Source: an uncultured Nitrososphaerota archaeon
GTDB taxonomy: Archaea; Korarchaeota; Korarchaeia; Korarchaeales; Korarchaeaceae
Direction: 5' to 3'
Assembly: GCA_964618805.1 (NCBI GenBank)
Contig: CAZUBM010000006.1
Location: forward strand, 83,129 to 95,118
Length of the DNA: 11,990 nt
Shown here: piece after piece, positions 5,615 through 11,990 of the stretch
Layout: each line of letters begins with the position of its first letter
Position numbering within the stretch: the stretch's first letter is position 1
Notes under the pieces: model-generated
Database searches by the model: none
Told to the model about the DNA's origin: nothing
What the model saw: only the letters and a program-made list of their open reading frames with translations
Program-made: the position numbers and the translations under genes

Positions 5615-6352
5615 TTGGGGGAACTCAGCAGTGTGCGAATAGTCGTTCTAGTAGATAATGAGCCGAGCAAATCTAATACGAAATTAAAGGCTGCATGGGG
5701 GATTTCTCTCTACGTAAAGACTGAAAACGTCTCCTTCTTGTTTGACGCTGGTCCTAGCCCAGAAGTATTGGAGAACAATTGCAAGATTCTAGGAATCGAT
5801 CTAAGCAATATATCCTTTGCTTTCATTTCCCATGAACATAGGGATCACATTGGAGGACTCCCATATGTTGCGAAGGTAGCTCCGGGCGTAACTGTATATG
5901 TCCCATCGGGCATGAGTTCTTCTGCTCAAAGATGGATGGAGAAACTTGGTTTCAATGTTATTGAAGTGGAGGGTCCTTTACAAATCTCTAAAGGAATTGC
6001 AAGCACTGGTCCCCTTAAGAGTGGATCTTTAGCTGAGCATGGCCTTGTTCTAAACCTACAGGGGAAGGGTATAGTCCTTCTAGTTGGTTGTGCTCATCCA
6101 GGAGTTGAGAGGATGCTGTTAAATGCTACTGTTTTCTCACAAAAGATATATGGGGTTATAGGAGGTTTTCATCTCATAGGAGCAAGTGAGATGAGGTTAG
6201 GACAGATAGCTAGGGTCTTTAAGGATTTGAATCTTCAGCTTATAGCCCCGTTACACTGTTCTGGAAAAGTTGCAAAGAGCTTCTTTGAAGAGCGTTTTCC
6301 TCAGGCCTACCTAGATGCTTATACGGGAAGCGTTATGGAAATAGATCCATGA
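5615..6352 (+). CDS. Metallo-beta-lactamase-fold hydrolase (COG1237-like), possibly the 3' part of an interrupted gene starting at 5489
   Basis: VLVDN, WGISL, LFDAG, SHEHRDHIGG (HxHxDH), GCAHPG, GGFHL, PLHCSG. No clear SD before TTG 5615. Confidence 0.85.
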   Translation: MGELSSVRIVVLVDNEPSKSNTKLKAAWGISLYVKTENVSFLFDAGPSPEVLENNCKILGIDLSNISFAFISHEHRDHIGGLPYVAKVAPGVTVYVPSGMSSSAQRWMEKLGFNVIEVEGPLQISKGIASTGPLKSGSLAEHGLVLNLQGKGIVLLVGCAHPGVERMLLNATVFSQKIYGVIGGFHLIGASEMRLGQIARVFKDLNLQLIAPLHCSGKVAKSFFEERFPQAYLDAYTGSVMEIDP

Positions 6353-6462: not shown

Positions 6463-6489
6463 AGTCATCTTAATGAGAAAGAAGCTGGA

Positions 6490-6849
6490 TTATTTTGTCT
6501 CTAGCTCTGCCAACCTTCTATCTAAATCTTCGAGTTGTTTCTTGAGGATATCCCTTTGTTGTTTGAGATATCTTATCTGGTCCTCTTTGCTCATAGCTAC
6601 CGTAGGTGGCATTGTAGTCGTGGGAGGCACTGGAGCAGGTGTAGTCATAGGAGGTACTGGAGCAGGTACTTGCTGATAAGGTAAAGGCGTTGTCGGGGCT
6701 ACTGGTGGGACAATGCCATACTGAAAGATAGGAGGAAGCCCTCCTGGAGACCTACCAAGCCAACCTGGTGAGTAACCAAATCTCACCCATCCAGGTAAGC
6801 CTGTAGCGTAATACATTCTTCTCCATCTGTATCCCATATTCATCACCAT
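6490..6849 (-). CDS. DUF5320-like protein: Arg/Trp/Tyr/Gly N-terminus, Pro/Thr linker, C-terminal coiled coil
   Basis: RWRRMYYATGLPGW motif and C-terminal EDQIRYLKQQRDILKKQLEDLDRRLAELE heptads; typical neighbour of NifX/DUF134 loci. The true start may be ATG 6837 (GGTGA 5 nt upstream). Confidence 0.8.
   Translation of the reverse strand: MVMNMGYRWRRMYYATGLPGWVRFGYSPGWLGRSPGGLPPIFQYGIVPPVAPTTPLPYQQVPAPVPPMTTPAPVPPTTTMPPTVAMSKEDQIRYLKQQRDILKKQLEDLDRRLAELETK
6614..6667. repeat. Tandem duplication, 2 x 27 nt (24/27 identical), encoding TPAPVPP(M/T)T-type repeats
   Basis: GTAGTCGTGGGAGGCACTGGAGCAGGT (6614-6640) followed by GTAGTCATAGGAGGTACTGGAGCAGGT (6641-6667). Confidence 0.85.
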
Positions 6850-6879
6850 TTATGAGATTATGCTAACAAATATTTAAGG
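6831..6879 (-). repeat. 49-bp inverted repeat, left copy (TATA box + palindrome + translation start)
   Basis: The minus strand reads CCTTAAATATTTGTTAGCATAATCTCATAAATGGTGATGAATATGGGAT, 48/49 identical to 8383-8431. Confidence 0.97.
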
Positions 6880-6883
6880 ATTC

Positions 6884-7285
6884 CTATTTTTCACTAATGA
6901 TTTCCACGGCTCGCTTAGTTGACAACATTCGCTCCATAGCCGCTATAACTTTATCAGATACTACATGTTCCAATTTGCATGCTTCAAGTCTAGCTTCTTT
7001 TTCCGAAAGACCAAAAATCTCCTCTAAAAATCTCTGTATCAACGAGCTCCTTTGCTTTATCTGCAAGGCTTTTCTGAAACCTTTTGTCTTTAACATAGCT
7101 CCAACTCCTGGCTTATAATCAACCAGATCCAGCTCTTGAAGTCTTCTAAACATCTCTGTGACAGATGGCGGCTTTATGTTTAGTCTTGTAGCTACTTCTG
7201 TAGTTCTAATGTATCTACTGTCCCCTCCTTTTTCAAAAAGCGTCTTTAGATAATCCTCTATTGCTCTCTTTGAACACTTACTCAT
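6884..7285 (-). CDS. DtxR/MntR-family metal-dependent transcriptional regulator (no FeoA domain), about 133 aa
   Basis: IEDYLK, winged HTH EVATRLNIKPPSVTEMFRRL, LVDYKP, EACKLEH. Start 7285 preferred over 7312, which overlaps the promoter palindrome. Confidence 0.88.
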   Translation of the reverse strand: MSKCSKRAIEDYLKTLFEKGGDSRYIRTTEVATRLNIKPPSVTEMFRRLQELDLVDYKPGVGAMLKTKGFRKALQIKQRSSLIQRFLEEIFGLSEKEARLEACKLEHVVSDKVIAAMERMLSTKRAVEIISEK

Positions 7286-7290
7286 GCCAC

Positions 7291-7340
7291 TTCTATAAAT
7301 TAGATAATGCACATTATTATATTTTTAGATCCTAGTCTAA
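7291..7340. promoter_or_regulatory. Compact divergent promoter between the regulator and the radical SAM gene, with two palindromes
   Basis: ATAATG-CA-CATTAT (7304-7317), TTAGA-N6-TCTAA (7325-7340), and AT-rich TATA-like tracts CTATAAAT and TTATTATATTTT. Confidence 0.55.
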
Positions 7341-7346
7341 GGGAAG

Positions 7347-8345
7347 ATGGCTAGCATAGTATATGGTCCAGTTCCTTCATGGAGGCTGGGAAGAAGCCTT
7401 GGAATAGATGCAACTCTTCTACCCAAGGCCTGTACTCTTGAATGTGTATACTGTCAGCTTGGTAAAACCATCAGAAGGATATCTACTCCGAAAGAACTAG
7501 ATCCAGCCATTGGAGTTGAAGAAATGATTATCCAGTTAGAACGTAAGATAGAGAGGATAGGTGTCGATTCAATAGATTTCATCACTTTTTCAGGAACAGG
7601 AGAACCTACTCTCAATCCAAATCTTGGAAAAATGATCTCTGCTGTAAAAAAGATGGTTCCCTTCAAGCCAGTTGCTGTTCTAACGAATTCATCCCTGTTA
7701 TACTTAGATGAAGTAAAAGAAGCACTATCAAATGCAGACCTGGTATCACTGAAGCTAGATGCGGGGGATCAACAGACTTTTGAGGATATAAATAGACCTG
7801 TTGCTGGCATCCCTAGCATAAAGGAAATCATAGAGAGCATTAGGGAGTTCAAAGCTAGTTACAAGGGAATACTCGCACTTCAGATCATGCTAATTGATAG
7901 TATCAAGCCTAATTTCAGAGTTAATTTCAAGGGAAAAGCATTGGATTTATTAATTAACGGCATTGCTGAAATCCAACCAGATCAGATTCAGCTAAATACC
8001 CCAACTAGGCCTGTAATGGAGAAGCACATTAGACCCGTAAACTCCACCGTATTAAGTGTAGTGGAGAGGAGAATTAAAGAAGTGGCTCCAGAATCAGAGA
8101 TTTTGAGGGTTGATGAGAGAAGAGCACCATTAAAATCGATAAAAAGAGAGAGAAGGCCTATAGAGGAGCTAAGAGCCGACATAGTTGCTTTATTGGAGAG
8201 GAGACCATGTCGAGCAGTTGATATCTCCATTGCATTAGGAGCAGAACAAAGAGAAATTGAAACAATTATAGAATCTATGATTAAGGATGGAATAGTCAGA
8301 GGAATAAGAAGCGAAAGAGGAATTTATTACGCTTACATAGGTTGA
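7347..8345 (+). CDS. Radical SAM protein (COG0731, wyosine synthase TYW1-like superfamily) with a probable C-terminal winged helix
   Basis: YGPVPSWRLGRSLGID N-terminal signature, CTLECVYC (CxxxCxxC), ITFSGTGEPTL, AVLTNSSL, KLDA, NTPTRP; C-terminal RRPC...DISIALG helix-turn-helix-like tail. Confidence 0.9.
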   Translation: MASIVYGPVPSWRLGRSLGIDATLLPKACTLECVYCQLGKTIRRISTPKELDPAIGVEEMIIQLERKIERIGVDSIDFITFSGTGEPTLNPNLGKMISAVKKMVPFKPVAVLTNSSLLYLDEVKEALSNADLVSLKLDAGDQQTFEDINRPVAGIPSIKEIIESIREFKASYKGILALQIMLIDSIKPNFRVNFKGKALDLLINGIAEIQPDQIQLNTPTRPVMEKHIRPVNSTVLSVVERRIKEVAPESEILRVDERRAPLKSIKRERRPIEELRADIVALLERRPCRAVDISIALGAEQREIETIIESMIKDGIVRGIRSERGIYYAYIG

Positions 8346-8361
8346 AACTTTGCACCATCGT

Positions 8362-8392
8362 ATATATAAGGTTGAGAACCAACCTTAAATAT
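8362..8392. repeat. 13-bp inverted repeat with 5-nt spacer (back-to-back TATA-like boxes or hairpin)
   Basis: ATATATAAGGTTG-AGAAC-CAACCTTAAATAT, 12 of 13 pairs; the right arm overlaps the 49-bp repeat. Confidence 0.8.
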
Positions 8393-8431
8393 TTGTTAGC
8401 ATAATCTCATAAATGGTCATGAATATGGGAT
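8383..8431 (+). repeat. 49-bp inverted repeat, right copy
   Basis: CCTTAAATATTTGTTAGCATAATCTCATAAATGGTCATGAATATGGGAT; the single difference is C8418 versus G in the left copy. Confidence 0.97.
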
Positions 8432-8730
8432 GGATAAGAGGAGGATGGGTTGGAAGGGGTTGGTACTACCCACCTATTGCACTTCCCTTAGCGAGCAGAG
8501 GGTACATCTACATAGGACCCTGCAGGTGTGGATTTGGACCGAACGCATTTTATCTCACTCCAACCGGGCAAATCGTTCATGCTTGGCAACTGGCAGGTTT
8601 AGCCTTCCCTGGATTTTTCCCATGGATGACACCAGTACCCGAGAGATATCTGCTTGAAACCGAGAAGAAGATGTTAGAGGAGGAGCTTAGATATATAGAA
8701 GAGAGATTAAAGCAGCTTGGAGGTGAGTAA
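8413..8730 (+). CDS. DUF5320-like protein with a CRC motif and C-terminal coiled coil
   Basis: Gly/Trp/Arg N-terminus, YIGPCRCGFGPNAFY, C-terminal LETEKKMLEEELRYIEERLKQL. The start may be ATG 8425. Confidence 0.78.
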   Translation: MVMNMGWIRGGWVGRGWYYPPIALPLASRGYIYIGPCRCGFGPNAFYLTPTGQIVHAWQLAGLAFPGFFPWMTPVPERYLLETEKKMLEEELRYIEERLKQLGGE

Positions 8731-8731
8731 T

Positions 8732-8890
8732 ATGAGATGGGGAAGGTGGTTTAGACCATTTAGGGGTTGGCGCGGAGGACCCTTCTATTGGGGCGTTCCC
8801 CCTTGCTATTACTTATTTTACCCAGTATATGCGGTATATAGGGCTCCTTGGCCCTTAGTTTATCGACCTTACGGTTATTTCGTTTGGTGA
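8732..8890 (+). CDS. Unannotated 52-aa aromatic/Arg/Pro/Gly-rich microprotein
   Basis: MRWGRWFRPFRGWRGGPFYWGVPPCYYLFYPVYAVYRAPWPLVYRPYGYFVW*. SD GGAGGTGA at 8719-8726, starts 1 nt after the upstream stop, exactly fills the operon gap, and its TGA lies within the GGTGA SD of the next gene. Confidence 0.75.
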   Translation: MRWGRWFRPFRGWRGGPFYWGVPPCYYLFYPVYAVYRAPWPLVYRPYGYFVW

Positions 8891-8895
8891 TGCGA

Positions 8896-9411
8896 ATGGT
8901 TGAGAAAATAGCGATAGCTAGCCAATGGCTTGGGGGCTTGGATGACTATGTGTCTCCAGTTTTTGCTAGATGCAATAGCTTCACCATAGTGGAAGTTGAG
9001 GATGGAAGCATCCGAGAAGTTACTACCCTCAATAATCCATCAAGAATAGCACCCTTCGGAGCAGGAATACAAGCAGCTCAGCTCATTGCTTCTACAGGAT
9101 CGAAAGTAGTAATTGCTGGCAGTTTTGGGCCTAATGCACTTACAGCCCTATCTTACATGGGAATAAGGGCAATAGCTGGTGCATACGGTATCAGGGTGAA
9201 GGAAGCTGTTGAGAAGTATTTAGAGGGAAGCCTGCAAGCTCGAGAGATCAGACCGCTTACGGTCCCAGCTCCTGGAATGTTACGAGTAATGCCTTACGCA
9301 CCAACATTGCCAAAGGAAAAGGAAATTGAGATGTTAAAGGCTAGGATGGGTTTCATCAAGAAAAGGTTGAGGGAAATAGAGAAAAGACTTAAAGAGCTAG
9401 GTGGAGAATAG
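8896..9411 (+). CDS. NifB/NifX-family protein fused to a C-terminal DUF5320-like coiled coil, about 171 aa
   Basis: KIAIAS, VSPVFARC, NP...GAGIQAAQ, VIAGSFGPNA, AVEKYLEG; tail EIEMLKARMGFIKKRLREIEKRLKEL. Start 8896 chosen from SD GGTGA at 8886-8890. Confidence 0.88.
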   Translation: MVEKIAIASQWLGGLDDYVSPVFARCNSFTIVEVEDGSIREVTTLNNPSRIAPFGAGIQAAQLIASTGSKVVIAGSFGPNALTALSYMGIRAIAGAYGIRVKEAVEKYLEGSLQAREIRPLTVPAPGMLRVMPYAPTLPKEKEIEMLKARMGFIKKRLREIEKRLKELGGE

Positions 9412-9424
9412 GAAAGGTGATTCT

Positions 9425-9844
9425 TTGGAGCGAATAGTTGTTTCTTCAAGCCCTCCAGGAGGACTAGATAGTTTAGTAGATTACAGATTTGCTAGATGCA
9501 GCCACTTCACAGTGGTAGATGTGGAAAATGGGAAGATCATAAACGTAAGTGTAGTACCTAATCAATCAGCTATGACTCCCTACGGAGCAGGAATACAAGC
9601 AGCTCAGATCGTGGCTTCCTTAGGAGCTCAGTTAGTTATTACTGGGAGCATCGGACCTAACGCTTTTTCCTCCTTACAAAGTTTAGGCATTAGAATCTAC
9701 GCAGGAGTTGGAGGAATAAGCGTAAGGGATGCGATCATGAAGTACCTATCTGGCTCCCTCAGTCCTTCAACCGCACCGGCTTCCCGTGGAAGAGGCATGG
9801 GCATGGGTAGGGGGATGGGAAGAGGTAGAGGAAGAGGCTGGTAG
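9425..9844 (+). CDS. NifB/NifX-family protein with a Gly/Arg/Met-rich tail, about 139 aa
   Basis: VDYRFARC, GAGIQAAQ, ITGSIGPNA, tail RGRGMGMGRGMGRGRGRGW. TTG 9425 follows SD GGTGA at 9416-9420. Confidence 0.9.
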   Translation: MERIVVSSSPPGGLDSLVDYRFARCSHFTVVDVENGKIINVSVVPNQSAMTPYGAGIQAAQIVASLGAQLVITGSIGPNAFSSLQSLGIRIYAGVGGISVRDAIMKYLSGSLSPSTAPASRGRGMGMGRGMGRGRGRGW

Positions 9845-9966
9845 GTGTCAAGCTAACTCCTATGAGAGAATCTGTTGGGCGAAGGAGTTAATGGCCTAAA
9901 GTTAGAAGGTCGGGGAAATTGGCTGTAAGTGACCTACCTGAAATAAAATTGCTTAGAGGAAATCAA

Positions 9967-10869
9967 ATGGACATAAGCAGAGGGCCAAAAATCATAGCTG
10001 TAACCGGCGGGAAGGGAGGAACTGGAAAGACAACGGTTGCAGTAAACCTCGCCTTTCACTTCTCTCAAATCGGCAAAAAGGTCTTGTTAGCAGACTGCGA
10101 TGTAGATGCCCCAAGTGTTGCTACGCTCCTAGGAGCTGAGATGAGGAATGGAAAGGAAGTAAGACAATTCCTTCCAGTTTTTGATGAGAGCAGATGCATC
10201 AGATGTGGTGAATGCTCAAAAGCATGCAGAATGCATGCGATATTACAGGTTCCTGATAAAATTCCCCTTCTATTTCCCGATTTGTGCTTAGGCTGCGGAG
10301 CTTGCTCCATTGTTTGCCCTACAAATGCGATTCTAGATGGCAAGAAAGTTGTTGGGTGGATCTATGAGACAGAAGCATATGGAGTAGATCTGCTCATAGG
10401 AGAATTAAAGCTAAACGAGAGGGAGTCTGAGGCCATAATAAGGGAAGTAAAGGAGAGGGCAATGGATCTATCAAAAGAGAGGAGATATGACCTCATAATA
10501 ATAGATACGGCTCCTGGGGCCCATTGCGATGTAGCCTTATCCTTAAAGGACTCTGATTTCGTGCTAGCGGTGACCGAACCAACTCCTTTCGGAATTCATG
10601 ATTTAGACCTCATACTCGAGCTAGCTAATCTGTTGAAGCTAAAGCATGCAGTTGTGGTTAACAGAGCAGACCTACCCGGAAATCACCGCCTTTTGAAAGA
10701 AATATGCAAGAAGCATTCCTCTAGGCTAATCGAAGAGATCCCTGTAGATGATAATGTAGTGCAGAGCCACGTAAGGTCAAGACCTCTGATGTTAGACTTC
10801 CCAAATAGCCCAGCAGCAAGGGCAATCTCAAGGCTTGCAAAGGAGGTATGGGAGGAGCTTAGTCTATGA
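9967..10869 (+). CDS. MinD/ParA-family P-loop ATPase with an inserted 2x[4Fe-4S] ferredoxin domain (COG1149-like), copy 1
   Basis: Deviant Walker [58 protein letters not shown] 9967 (GAGG upstream) preferred to TTG 9919. Confidence 0.92.
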
Positions 10870-11753
10870 AAGAAGTGGTAATAGTGAGCGGAAAAGGAGG
10901 CGTAGGGAAGACTACAGTATCAGCCTCTCTAGGATGGTTAATGGCTGAACAAATGAAATTGGTGATGGTAGATGTGGATGTAGATGCTCCTAACCTTTCT
11001 TTAGTTATAGGTGGTACCCTAAAGAATTCTCTAGAGATAGAAGCTACTGAAAAGGCGTTTGTACGGTATGAAAAATGCAAAGGTTGTGGAATCTGTGCAG
11101 AAAACTGTCCTGAAGAGGCTATTCATATGATAGGACAGAAAGCAGTTGTTTCAAGCTTATTCTGCAGCGGATGCGGTGTATGTTCCATAGTTTGTCCTGA
11201 AAAGGCCATCGAATTGAGGTTGGTAGCTAACGGAAGGCTTGACCTTTACGAAAGTCCTTCTGGGTTTACATTGTTAGTAGGAAAATTGAAGATTGGGGAG
11301 TCTGGCTCAGGAAAACTGGTATCTGAAGTTAAAGAGAGAGCAAGACAGGTAGCTAAGGAAAAGGGTGCTGATTTGGTGTTAATAGATGGTCCTCCTGGAG
11401 CAGGTTGTCCAGCGATCTCGGCAGTATCAGGGGCCACTCATGCAATAATGGTAACAGAGCCTACTCCCGCAGCTTTTAGAAATCTTAAGAGGATTTTCTC
11501 AATAATAAGACATTTTGGAGCAAATCCAGGACTAATAATAAATAAAGCAGACTTATATGAGCCAATAAAACGAGAAGAAGTTCACTTTGCTGAGAAAGAG
11601 GGCATAGAAGTGTTAGGTGAGGTACCCATGGATGACTCGGTTCCAAGGTCTTTAGCCCTAGGCATGCCGGTTGTTAGCGCATTTCCAGGTGCTTCAGCTT
11701 CTTTAGCTATTAAAAGGATCTTCAAGAATCTAGTAAATTACTTAAAGATCTAA
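10866..11753 (+). CDS. MinD/ParA-family P-loop ATPase with an inserted 2x[4Fe-4S] ferredoxin domain, copy 2
   Basis: [67 protein letters not shown] overlap with copy 1. Confidence 0.93.
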
Positions 11754-11990
11754 TCCTTTGTTTCTTCCTCTTTTACCACAACTGGGGCTTGAGGAACTAT
11801 GAACAGCTCTCTTCCCTCAGCGATCGCTTTTATCATCTTCTTCCTTCCGCTTGCGACTAGCCTCCAAACAGTCCCCCGAGAAACTCCCATCCTCCTAGCT
11901 GCCTCTTCCTGACTAAGATCTTCTCCGTCTACAAGTCTAAGGGCTTCAAACTCGTCGTATGATAGCAAAATTGGTTCCTTTGGCTCCATA
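11750..11990 (-). CDS. DUF134 (UPF0251/COG1342) predicted DNA-binding protein, probably 5'-truncated by the window edge
   Basis: [40 protein letters not shown]. The basic N-terminus typical of the family is absent, so it probably lies beyond 11990. Overlaps the end of the ATPase gene by 4 nt. Confidence 0.87.

Follow-up and report, generated by a model that had tools for sequence, protein, structure and literature searches.

A 49-nt inverted repeat around a dtxR/radical SAM gene pair in an uncultured archaeon probably consists of two outward-facing copies of one promoter/operator module

The window analysed here is a stretch of 11,990 nucleotides (nt) from an uncultured Nitrososphaerota archaeon (GenBank assembly GCA_964618805.1, contig CAZUBM010000006.1), the source genome being a metagenome assembly of 62 contigs and 2,176,148 bases that is 93.7% complete. 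The window carries a long inverted repeat, the two arms of which enclose a pair of divergent genes, one for a DtxR/MntR-family metalloregulator and one for a radical SAM protein, and overlap the beginnings of two outward-facing genes, hereafter P1 (left) and P2 (right). A repeat search of the window returned two arms of 49 nt that are 98% complementary (48 of the 49 bases), with 1503 nt between them, as had been described in an earlier note made from the sequence alone; the enclosed gene pair, with its stops at short distances from the arms, was likewise as given there (Table 1). The next-longest inverted pair in the window has only 30 nt at 80%, which places the 49-nt pair far outside chance. 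When the left arm plus 11 nt was compared by BLAST with the whole genome, exactly two places were found, both of them the known arms, and thus the 49-mer has no further copies. The arm-to-arm homology ends sharply at both edges, and the single mismatch lies at 8418 on the right and 6844 on the left: the right arm has GGTCAT where the remaining seven arms of the four genomes that carry the locus have GGTGAT.

Table 1. Positions of the arms, genes and smaller sequence features in the window.
Feature	Position	Strand	Details
Left arm, putative module of P1	6831..6879	-	TATA box TTAAATA 6871-6877; core 6850-6870; GGTGAT 6842-6847; first ATG 6847-6849; third ATG 6835-6837
Right arm, same putative module before P2	8383..8431	+	TATA box 8385-8391; core 8392-8412; GGTCAT 8415-8420; first ATG 8413; third ATG 8425
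P1, small Gly/Trp/Pro-rich protein with C-terminal coiled coil, divergent DUF5320-like	6490..6849	-	PF17253 E 3.7e-5, 25.3 bits (cut-off 27); likely start 6837, 115 aa
P2, second divergent DUF5320-like protein, first gene of the NifX-like/ATPase operon	8413..8730	+	PF17253 E 0.0096, 17.5 bits; likely start 8425, 101 aa
DtxR/MntR-family metalloregulator without SH3-like third domain	6884..7312	-	likely ATG 7285, 133 aa; stop 4 nt from left arm
Radical SAM protein with weak C-terminal TrmB-like winged helix	7347..8345	+	stop 37 nt from right arm
Perfect palindrome ATAATG-CA-CATTAT	7304..7317		part of a 19-nt block without variation in four genomes; lies in the 61-nt divergent promoter region shared by dtxR and the radical SAM gene
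Dyad overlapping the first bases of the right arm	8362..8392	+	-10.2 kcal/mol, z = -4.1 here; z = -0.6 to -0.8 in three congeners
Operon downstream of P2	8848..11753	+	two NifX-like genes, then two ATPases
Two NifX-like genes	8848-9411, 9401-9844	+	PF02579 matched twice; downstream of P2
Two MinD/ParA-type ATPases with ferredoxin inserts	9919-10869, 10866-11753	+	PF10609/PF01656 with Fer4 inserts, twice

The best Pfam family for P1, P2 and all 11 relatives scanned is PF17253 (DUF5320). Two of these 11 relatives score above 27 bits, and in proteins of the P1/P2 type the match covers the C-terminal coiled-coil part of the profile only. BLASTP similarity between P1 and P2 is confined to their first residues, in agreement with the description of the outward genes as otherwise dissimilar. 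In the literature searched, no functional study of DUF5320 was found; the term occurs in two papers, neither of which, judged by its title, deals with such proteins. The enclosed regulator has both the DNA-binding and the metal-binding dimerisation domain (PF01325, 62 bits; PF02742, 51.3 bits; both over the cut-offs), and its matches to the NCBIfam MntR models lie under the equivalog cut-offs. The TrmB-like winged-helix match of the radical SAM protein has an E-value of 0.0011.

Read toward the outward gene, each arm is composed of two bases, TTAAATA, a 21-nt core, ATGGTGAT, four bases and ATGGGAT. The TTAAAT stretch starts at -28 from the first ATG and at -40 from the third, and GGTGA starts at -10 from the third. 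In a profile of 977 long open reading frames (ORFs) of the genome, TATA-like hexamers are most frequent 32 to 30 nt before the first ATG, and a shoulder extends to -44; for Shine-Dalgarno-like pentamers the maximum is at -12 to -9. The TATA box and the Shine-Dalgarno-like GGTGA of the arms fall within these genome-wide peaks, in keeping with the spacing of archaeal promoters built on a TATA box and a B recognition element (BRE), in which the TATA box is located some 25-30 nt ahead of the transcription start and a Shine-Dalgarno sequence some 10 nt ahead of the start codon. Just 5' of the TATA box the arms diverge, with AGGAAT on one side and GAACCAA on the other, and the difference in BRE-position sequence pointed out in the earlier note is therefore present. 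The Rfam search gave nothing in or near the arms and one weak match elsewhere in the window (E = 0.29).

The position of the start codon was approached by comparison with relatives. In the right arm of the congener G001, a 1-nt deletion shifts the first ATG into a frame with a stop after seven codons, and in G025, a genome from outside the family, the upstream ATG does not share the frame of the P1 homolog, the protein of which starts with MGW. The starts in G001 and G025 both correspond to the third ATG of the window arms, and the deletion together with the reading frame in G025 thus makes the third ATG (8425, and 6837 on the minus strand) the likely start. The arms had been described earlier as covering the TATA box and the first codons, MVMNMG, of both genes; the TATA box is indeed covered, but MVMNMG is probably not a shared peptide, and just 7 nt of each arm would be coding. 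Judged from these alignments, each arm most likely carries a promoter followed by a 12-nt leader, which contains a ribosome site, and by the first seven coding bases.

We consider it probable that the repeat represents two copies of one promoter/operator/ribosome-site module, a conserved feature of an ordinary kind. From the sequence we infer promoter activity, the place of the transcription start, the binding of a regulator to the core and the origin of the copy, in the following way. Each copy would drive one of the two outward-facing DUF5320-like genes, with the 21-nt core sitting around the expected transcription start. The module would originally have been that of P1, at the head of a NifX-like cluster. 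Within this genus, the P2-NifX-ATPase operon and P1 would have been brought into a back-to-back arrangement, with the dtxR/radical SAM pair between them, and P2 would have received a copy of the P1 module, possibly by gene conversion onto the P2 start or by an inversion with staggered breaks. Both units would share one promoter and bind whatever recognises the core, and the long inverted repeat would simply result from the outward orientation of two identical modules. Purifying selection may have kept the copies alike, together with gene conversion over short tracts or, alternatively, with selection acting in parallel on the binding site.

The locus is present in three congeners, G003, G004 and G001, whose radical SAM proteins share 87, 80 and 71% identity with that of the window, and which are collinear with window positions 6486-11990 at 86, 81 and 74% DNA identity, respectively. 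A fifth congener, G002 (90% complete), was left out: its contig stops 48 nt before the left arm, and a search of the assembly did not recover the remainder of the locus. A 36-nt degenerate arm pattern matched three and two contigs in two public collections, which were counted as the same three congeners and not as new evidence. Both arms are kept in all four genomes (the window and the three congeners), in one and the same orientation, with the dtxR end by P1 and the radical SAM end by P2, and no contig break falls at an arm in any of them. Across the eight arms, 38 of the 49 columns are invariant, as compared to 74-86% DNA identity of the whole locus. None of the 49 columns is fixed by side (left versus right). 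Scattered differences are found in eight columns, six of which lie within columns 36-48, while the remaining three columns (20, 21 and 25) vary between genomes and are identical in both arms of each genome. The copies of the core outside the genus carry the G001 state at these co-varying columns, which implies that both arms changed together on two successive branches.

In order to follow the core beyond the genus, an 18-nt core pattern was scanned, with at most one mismatch, in 43 genomes of the phylum, along with a reversed control. The pattern is present in eight of the 43 genomes, and the reversed control gave no match in any of them. It occurs twice, once per arm, in the window genome and in the three congeners with the locus; one congener has a third match, with one mismatch, on another contig, which looks like chance. 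Full-length P1 homologs outside the family are found in G025, G029 and G030 (61, 47 and 50% identity, respectively), and each of these genomes has the core once, directly upstream of the P1 homolog, together with a TATA box and a strong Shine-Dalgarno sequence. In the eighth genome, G017, the core occurs once, upstream of feoA, as a perfect 7+6+7 palindrome in the promoter region. The gene order in G029 is P1, a second DUF5320 gene, NifX and NifX on a single strand, and in G030 it is P1, NifX and NifX. Orthologs of P2 followed by a NifX-like gene are found in genera g2, g3 and g4, where none of the 27 genomes matched the 18-nt pattern, and the sequence upstream of P2 is different in the four g3 loci that were read. 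As the core also stands before P1-type genes of other genera and families, the arm is taken to be an old cis-element which was copied before a second gene in this genus. Since all four genomes with the locus carry both arms at 74-86% DNA identity, the duplication is not recent. The earlier note had offered, as an alternative to its main proposal, a recent promoter duplication or gene conversion that keeps the two arms co-regulated; the duplication or conversion is supported by these comparisons, but its recency is not.

Two further searches for the core did not lead to a wider set of sites. The best other match to a 22-nt core in the source genome has four mismatches, lies before an unrelated small gene on contig C26 and looks like chance. 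The pattern TTATGTG-N6-CACATAA was also tried as the signature of a regulon and was dropped: with at most two mismatches it gave 160 matches in the 43 genomes versus 63 for the reversed control, its five matches in the source genome are in unremarkable places, and the arms themselves fail it at four mismatches. A separate observation concerns contig C14 of G025 (locus L072), where the divergent P1/NifX-like region at about 213110-213291 has two related palindromes, the arm-type core before P1 and TTTTGTGGTTTAACACAAAA before NifX, a layout that resembles the two arms in the window.

Several points weigh against two copies of one module held together by a common regulator. The arms within G003 and the arms within G001 differ at four positions each, and the differences between genomes number 2-8; the within-genome differences thus equal some of those between genomes, which indicates that whole-arm homogenisation has not been recent. 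The co-variation of the arms rests on three columns. Therefore, the concerted change of the arms is taken as real but limited, and it would fit gene conversion over short tracts as well as parallel selection on a common site. Three more points concern the enclosed regulator, and they bear equally on a specific form of the duplicated module, in which the DtxR/MntR-family protein binds the core of both arms and the locus is a self-contained metal-responsive regulon. The regulator gene does sit between its two supposed targets, the same core precedes the iron-uptake gene feoA in G017, and the arm core and the palindrome beside dtxR, compared by eye, share CACAT(A/T)A(A/T)T. On the other hand, this DtxR paralog was seen in this genus alone (76-85% identity in the three congeners and at most 37% elsewhere among the 43 genomes), whereas the core is older, being found in G025, G029, G030 and G017. 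The half-site spacing of the arm core differs from that of the palindrome at 7304-7317. Furthermore, TTAGG..CCTAA is the DtxR-type operator consensus, and canonical boxes of this type precede both feoA genes of the genome, while none are found in the arms. Regulation of both arms by the enclosed DtxR-type protein is thus regarded as unlikely.

The palindrome between dtxR and the radical SAM gene has its only exact copy in the genome at this place and, judged by its position, is a candidate autoregulatory operator. The radical SAM protein, with its winged-helix match, may be put forward as a second candidate binder of the core. The occurrence of the core before feoA in one genome is a hint at a link with metal homeostasis. 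As to the two feoA genes of the source genome, perfect palindromes of the types TTAGGC-TT-GCCTAA and TTAGGT-TTT-ACCTAA were seen upstream of them, on C4 at about 112330-112350 and on C17 upstream of 380; the palindrome on C4 directly follows a TATA-like stretch, and both resemble classical DtxR/IdeR boxes. The dyad at 8362-8392 that the earlier note had reported is present in the window (Table 1), but as a conserved hairpin it was rejected: it is strong in the source genome only, and the compensatory change seen by eye requires a shifted register.

The state of the repeat in read data was assessed in contigs assembled at k = 31 from seven runs of five studies, of which four were compared with the stretch; the runs that contain the stretch are labelled as hydrothermal vent metagenomes, and no RNA run is among them. 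In these four runs the contigs stop 30 nt into each arm, and none bridges an arm plus unique sequence on both sides. In the best-covered run, a 49-nt contig equals the left arm and has a depth of 79.7 versus about 40 in its neighbours. As a k = 31 graph yields such contig ends and such a depth for an exact 49-nt repeat, the arms are suggested to be identical in this run. The contig depths therefore suggest G rather than C at 8418 in the best-covered run, the mismatch being either an error or a minor variant. Consequently, the reported identity of 48 in 49 holds for the assembly, and the mismatch may not hold in that run.

The source genome is a metagenome assembly, and gene order at this locus varies between genera, so that rearrangements have occurred. 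One might thus take the repeat for an assembly error, or for a remnant, without function, of an ancient inversion whose breaks were staggered. The chance of this is considered extremely small. Both arms are present in four separately assembled genomes and were seen in contigs of three runs from two samples, which speaks against an artefact, and a neutral relic would have decayed, whereas the arms are more strongly conserved than their surroundings. An origin by staggered breaks is, as such, compatible with a duplicated module.

The main proposal of the earlier note was an invertible switch. In such a switch, the 1.5-kb dtxR/radical SAM cassette would be inverted in some members of the population by recombination between the arms; the flip would change the read-through partners of the inner genes and the sequences at the BRE position. 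Such a switch would agree with a near-perfect inverted repeat that brackets the cassette without cutting any ORF, and also with the three co-varying columns, which, if caused by gene conversion, would mean that the arms do meet physically. Archaeal invertons also have a precedent, with 12 putative invertons in archaea reported from 42 read sets (10.1101/2023.03.11.532203). The comparison of sister genomes, however, brought to light no inverted form, as all three congeners with the locus have the cassette in the orientation of the window, uninterrupted by contig breaks at the arms. Moreover, the outward promoters are predicted to lie inside the arms. A crossover would thus rebuild the module from the TATA box to the ATG and turn neither gene on or off; what would change is limited to the read-through partners and the stretch 5' of the TATA box. 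According to Pfam, no recombinase is encoded by the 16 ORFs of the window, as the earlier note had also stated. The Resolvase family (PF00239) has no match in the genome as assembled (93.7% complete), and the five matches of the Phage_integrase family (PF00589) are on contigs C35, C4, C29 and C5, with none on C6. Finally, the core stands single and partnerless before P1 genes in three other genera, which fits a cis-regulatory element and not a recombination site. Of four features of invertons, the inverted repeats are found here, whereas the other three (both orientations among relatives, relinking of a promoter with its gene, and a recombinase nearby) are not. The locus is accordingly not a member of the inverton class, and the switch is unsupported and regarded as highly improbable.

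A milder form would be that the arms recombine mostly through short gene conversions, which would explain the co-varying columns, and that rare crossovers flip the cassette in a minority of cells. This, too, is considered improbable. If true, it would make arm recombination a recombinase-free, homology-driven source of an expression variant in a vent archaeon, with the flip exchanging the inner gene that reads into P1 or into the P2-NifX-ATPase operon, as well as the BRE-position sequence of each.

Bacterial invertons such as fimS and hin carry the promoter within the segment that is flipped and have the gene of a dedicated recombinase next to that segment. The present locus shares with them the inverted repeats flanking a segment beside regulated genes, but here the promoters are predicted to be within the repeats, there is no recombinase nearby, and one orientation is seen in four genomes. 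Similar to DtxR/IdeR/MntR repressors with promoter-overlapping operators, the locus has a DtxR-family gene with a perfect palindrome in its promoter region, and TTAGG..CCTAA palindromes are found just after the feoA TATA boxes of the same genome; unlike in these systems, the core of the arms does not have the form of a TTAGG..CCTAA box, and the paralog is genus-restricted.

Among described systems, the two divergent orp operons of Desulfovibrio vulgaris Hildenborough come closest to the locus in their genes and in their arrangement. There, the OrpR regulon is reported to consist of these two operons only, which OrpR co-regulates through two dedicated sites (PMC8359166). Similar to the orp operons, the locus combines NifX-like proteins of the 'orange protein' (ORP) type with Mrp/MinD-type ATPases, and has two units that point outward, each equipped with a separate copy of the same site. 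As in the two-operon OrpR regulon, a genome with the core has it at one or two places, and only at these genes. In contrast to the orp operons, the predicted promoter here is of the archaeal TATA type and not sigma-54-dependent, no OrpR-like enhancer-binding protein is encoded in the window, and the sites are part of a 49-nt near-identical copy that includes the TATA box, the ribosome site and the start codon. The cluster is ORP-like in its content of NifX-like and Mrp/MinD-type ATPase genes, a likeness that does not imply orthology, and the NCBIfam MrpORP model was matched far under its cut-off (43-58 bits versus 450).

Several additional observations were made on the genes around the repeat. 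Within P1, a 27-nt tandem duplication with 89% identity (6613-6666) encodes PAPVPPMTT/PAPVPPTTT; the open frame of P1 has 119 aa here versus 107-110 aa in the three congeners, and the extra unit seems to be genome-specific. The C-terminal end of the first NifX-like protein (positions 9235-9399 of the gene at 8848-9411) resembles the coiled-coil end of P1 (E = 6.6e-5, 35% identity), suggesting that this protein consists of a NifX-like domain and a DUF5320-like tail, and the same combination was seen after P2 orthologs in other genera. Homologs of the radical SAM gene recur beside P1 or NifX-like genes in two more genera (tblastn; L072 4343-5263, 27% identity, and L075 5201-6163, 40% identity), adjoining P1 in G025 and a NifX-like gene in G030; this recurrence suggests that the radical SAM protein is functionally tied to the DUF5320/NifX cluster. 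A gene of the metallo-beta-lactamase fold adjoins the cluster both here (5615-6352) and in G029 (L073 6831-7532), at 34% identity, and is a conserved neighbour.

As the present locus suggests, an inverted repeat around a gene cassette can be two outward-facing promoter modules, which calls for caution in scans for inverted repeats. The contents of the arms and the single-copy core in relatives are what separates a duplicated module of this kind from a true switch. For the DUF5320/NifX-like clusters, the comparison would define a cis-element of about 21 nt, lying between the TATA box and the ribosome site and conserved across several genera.

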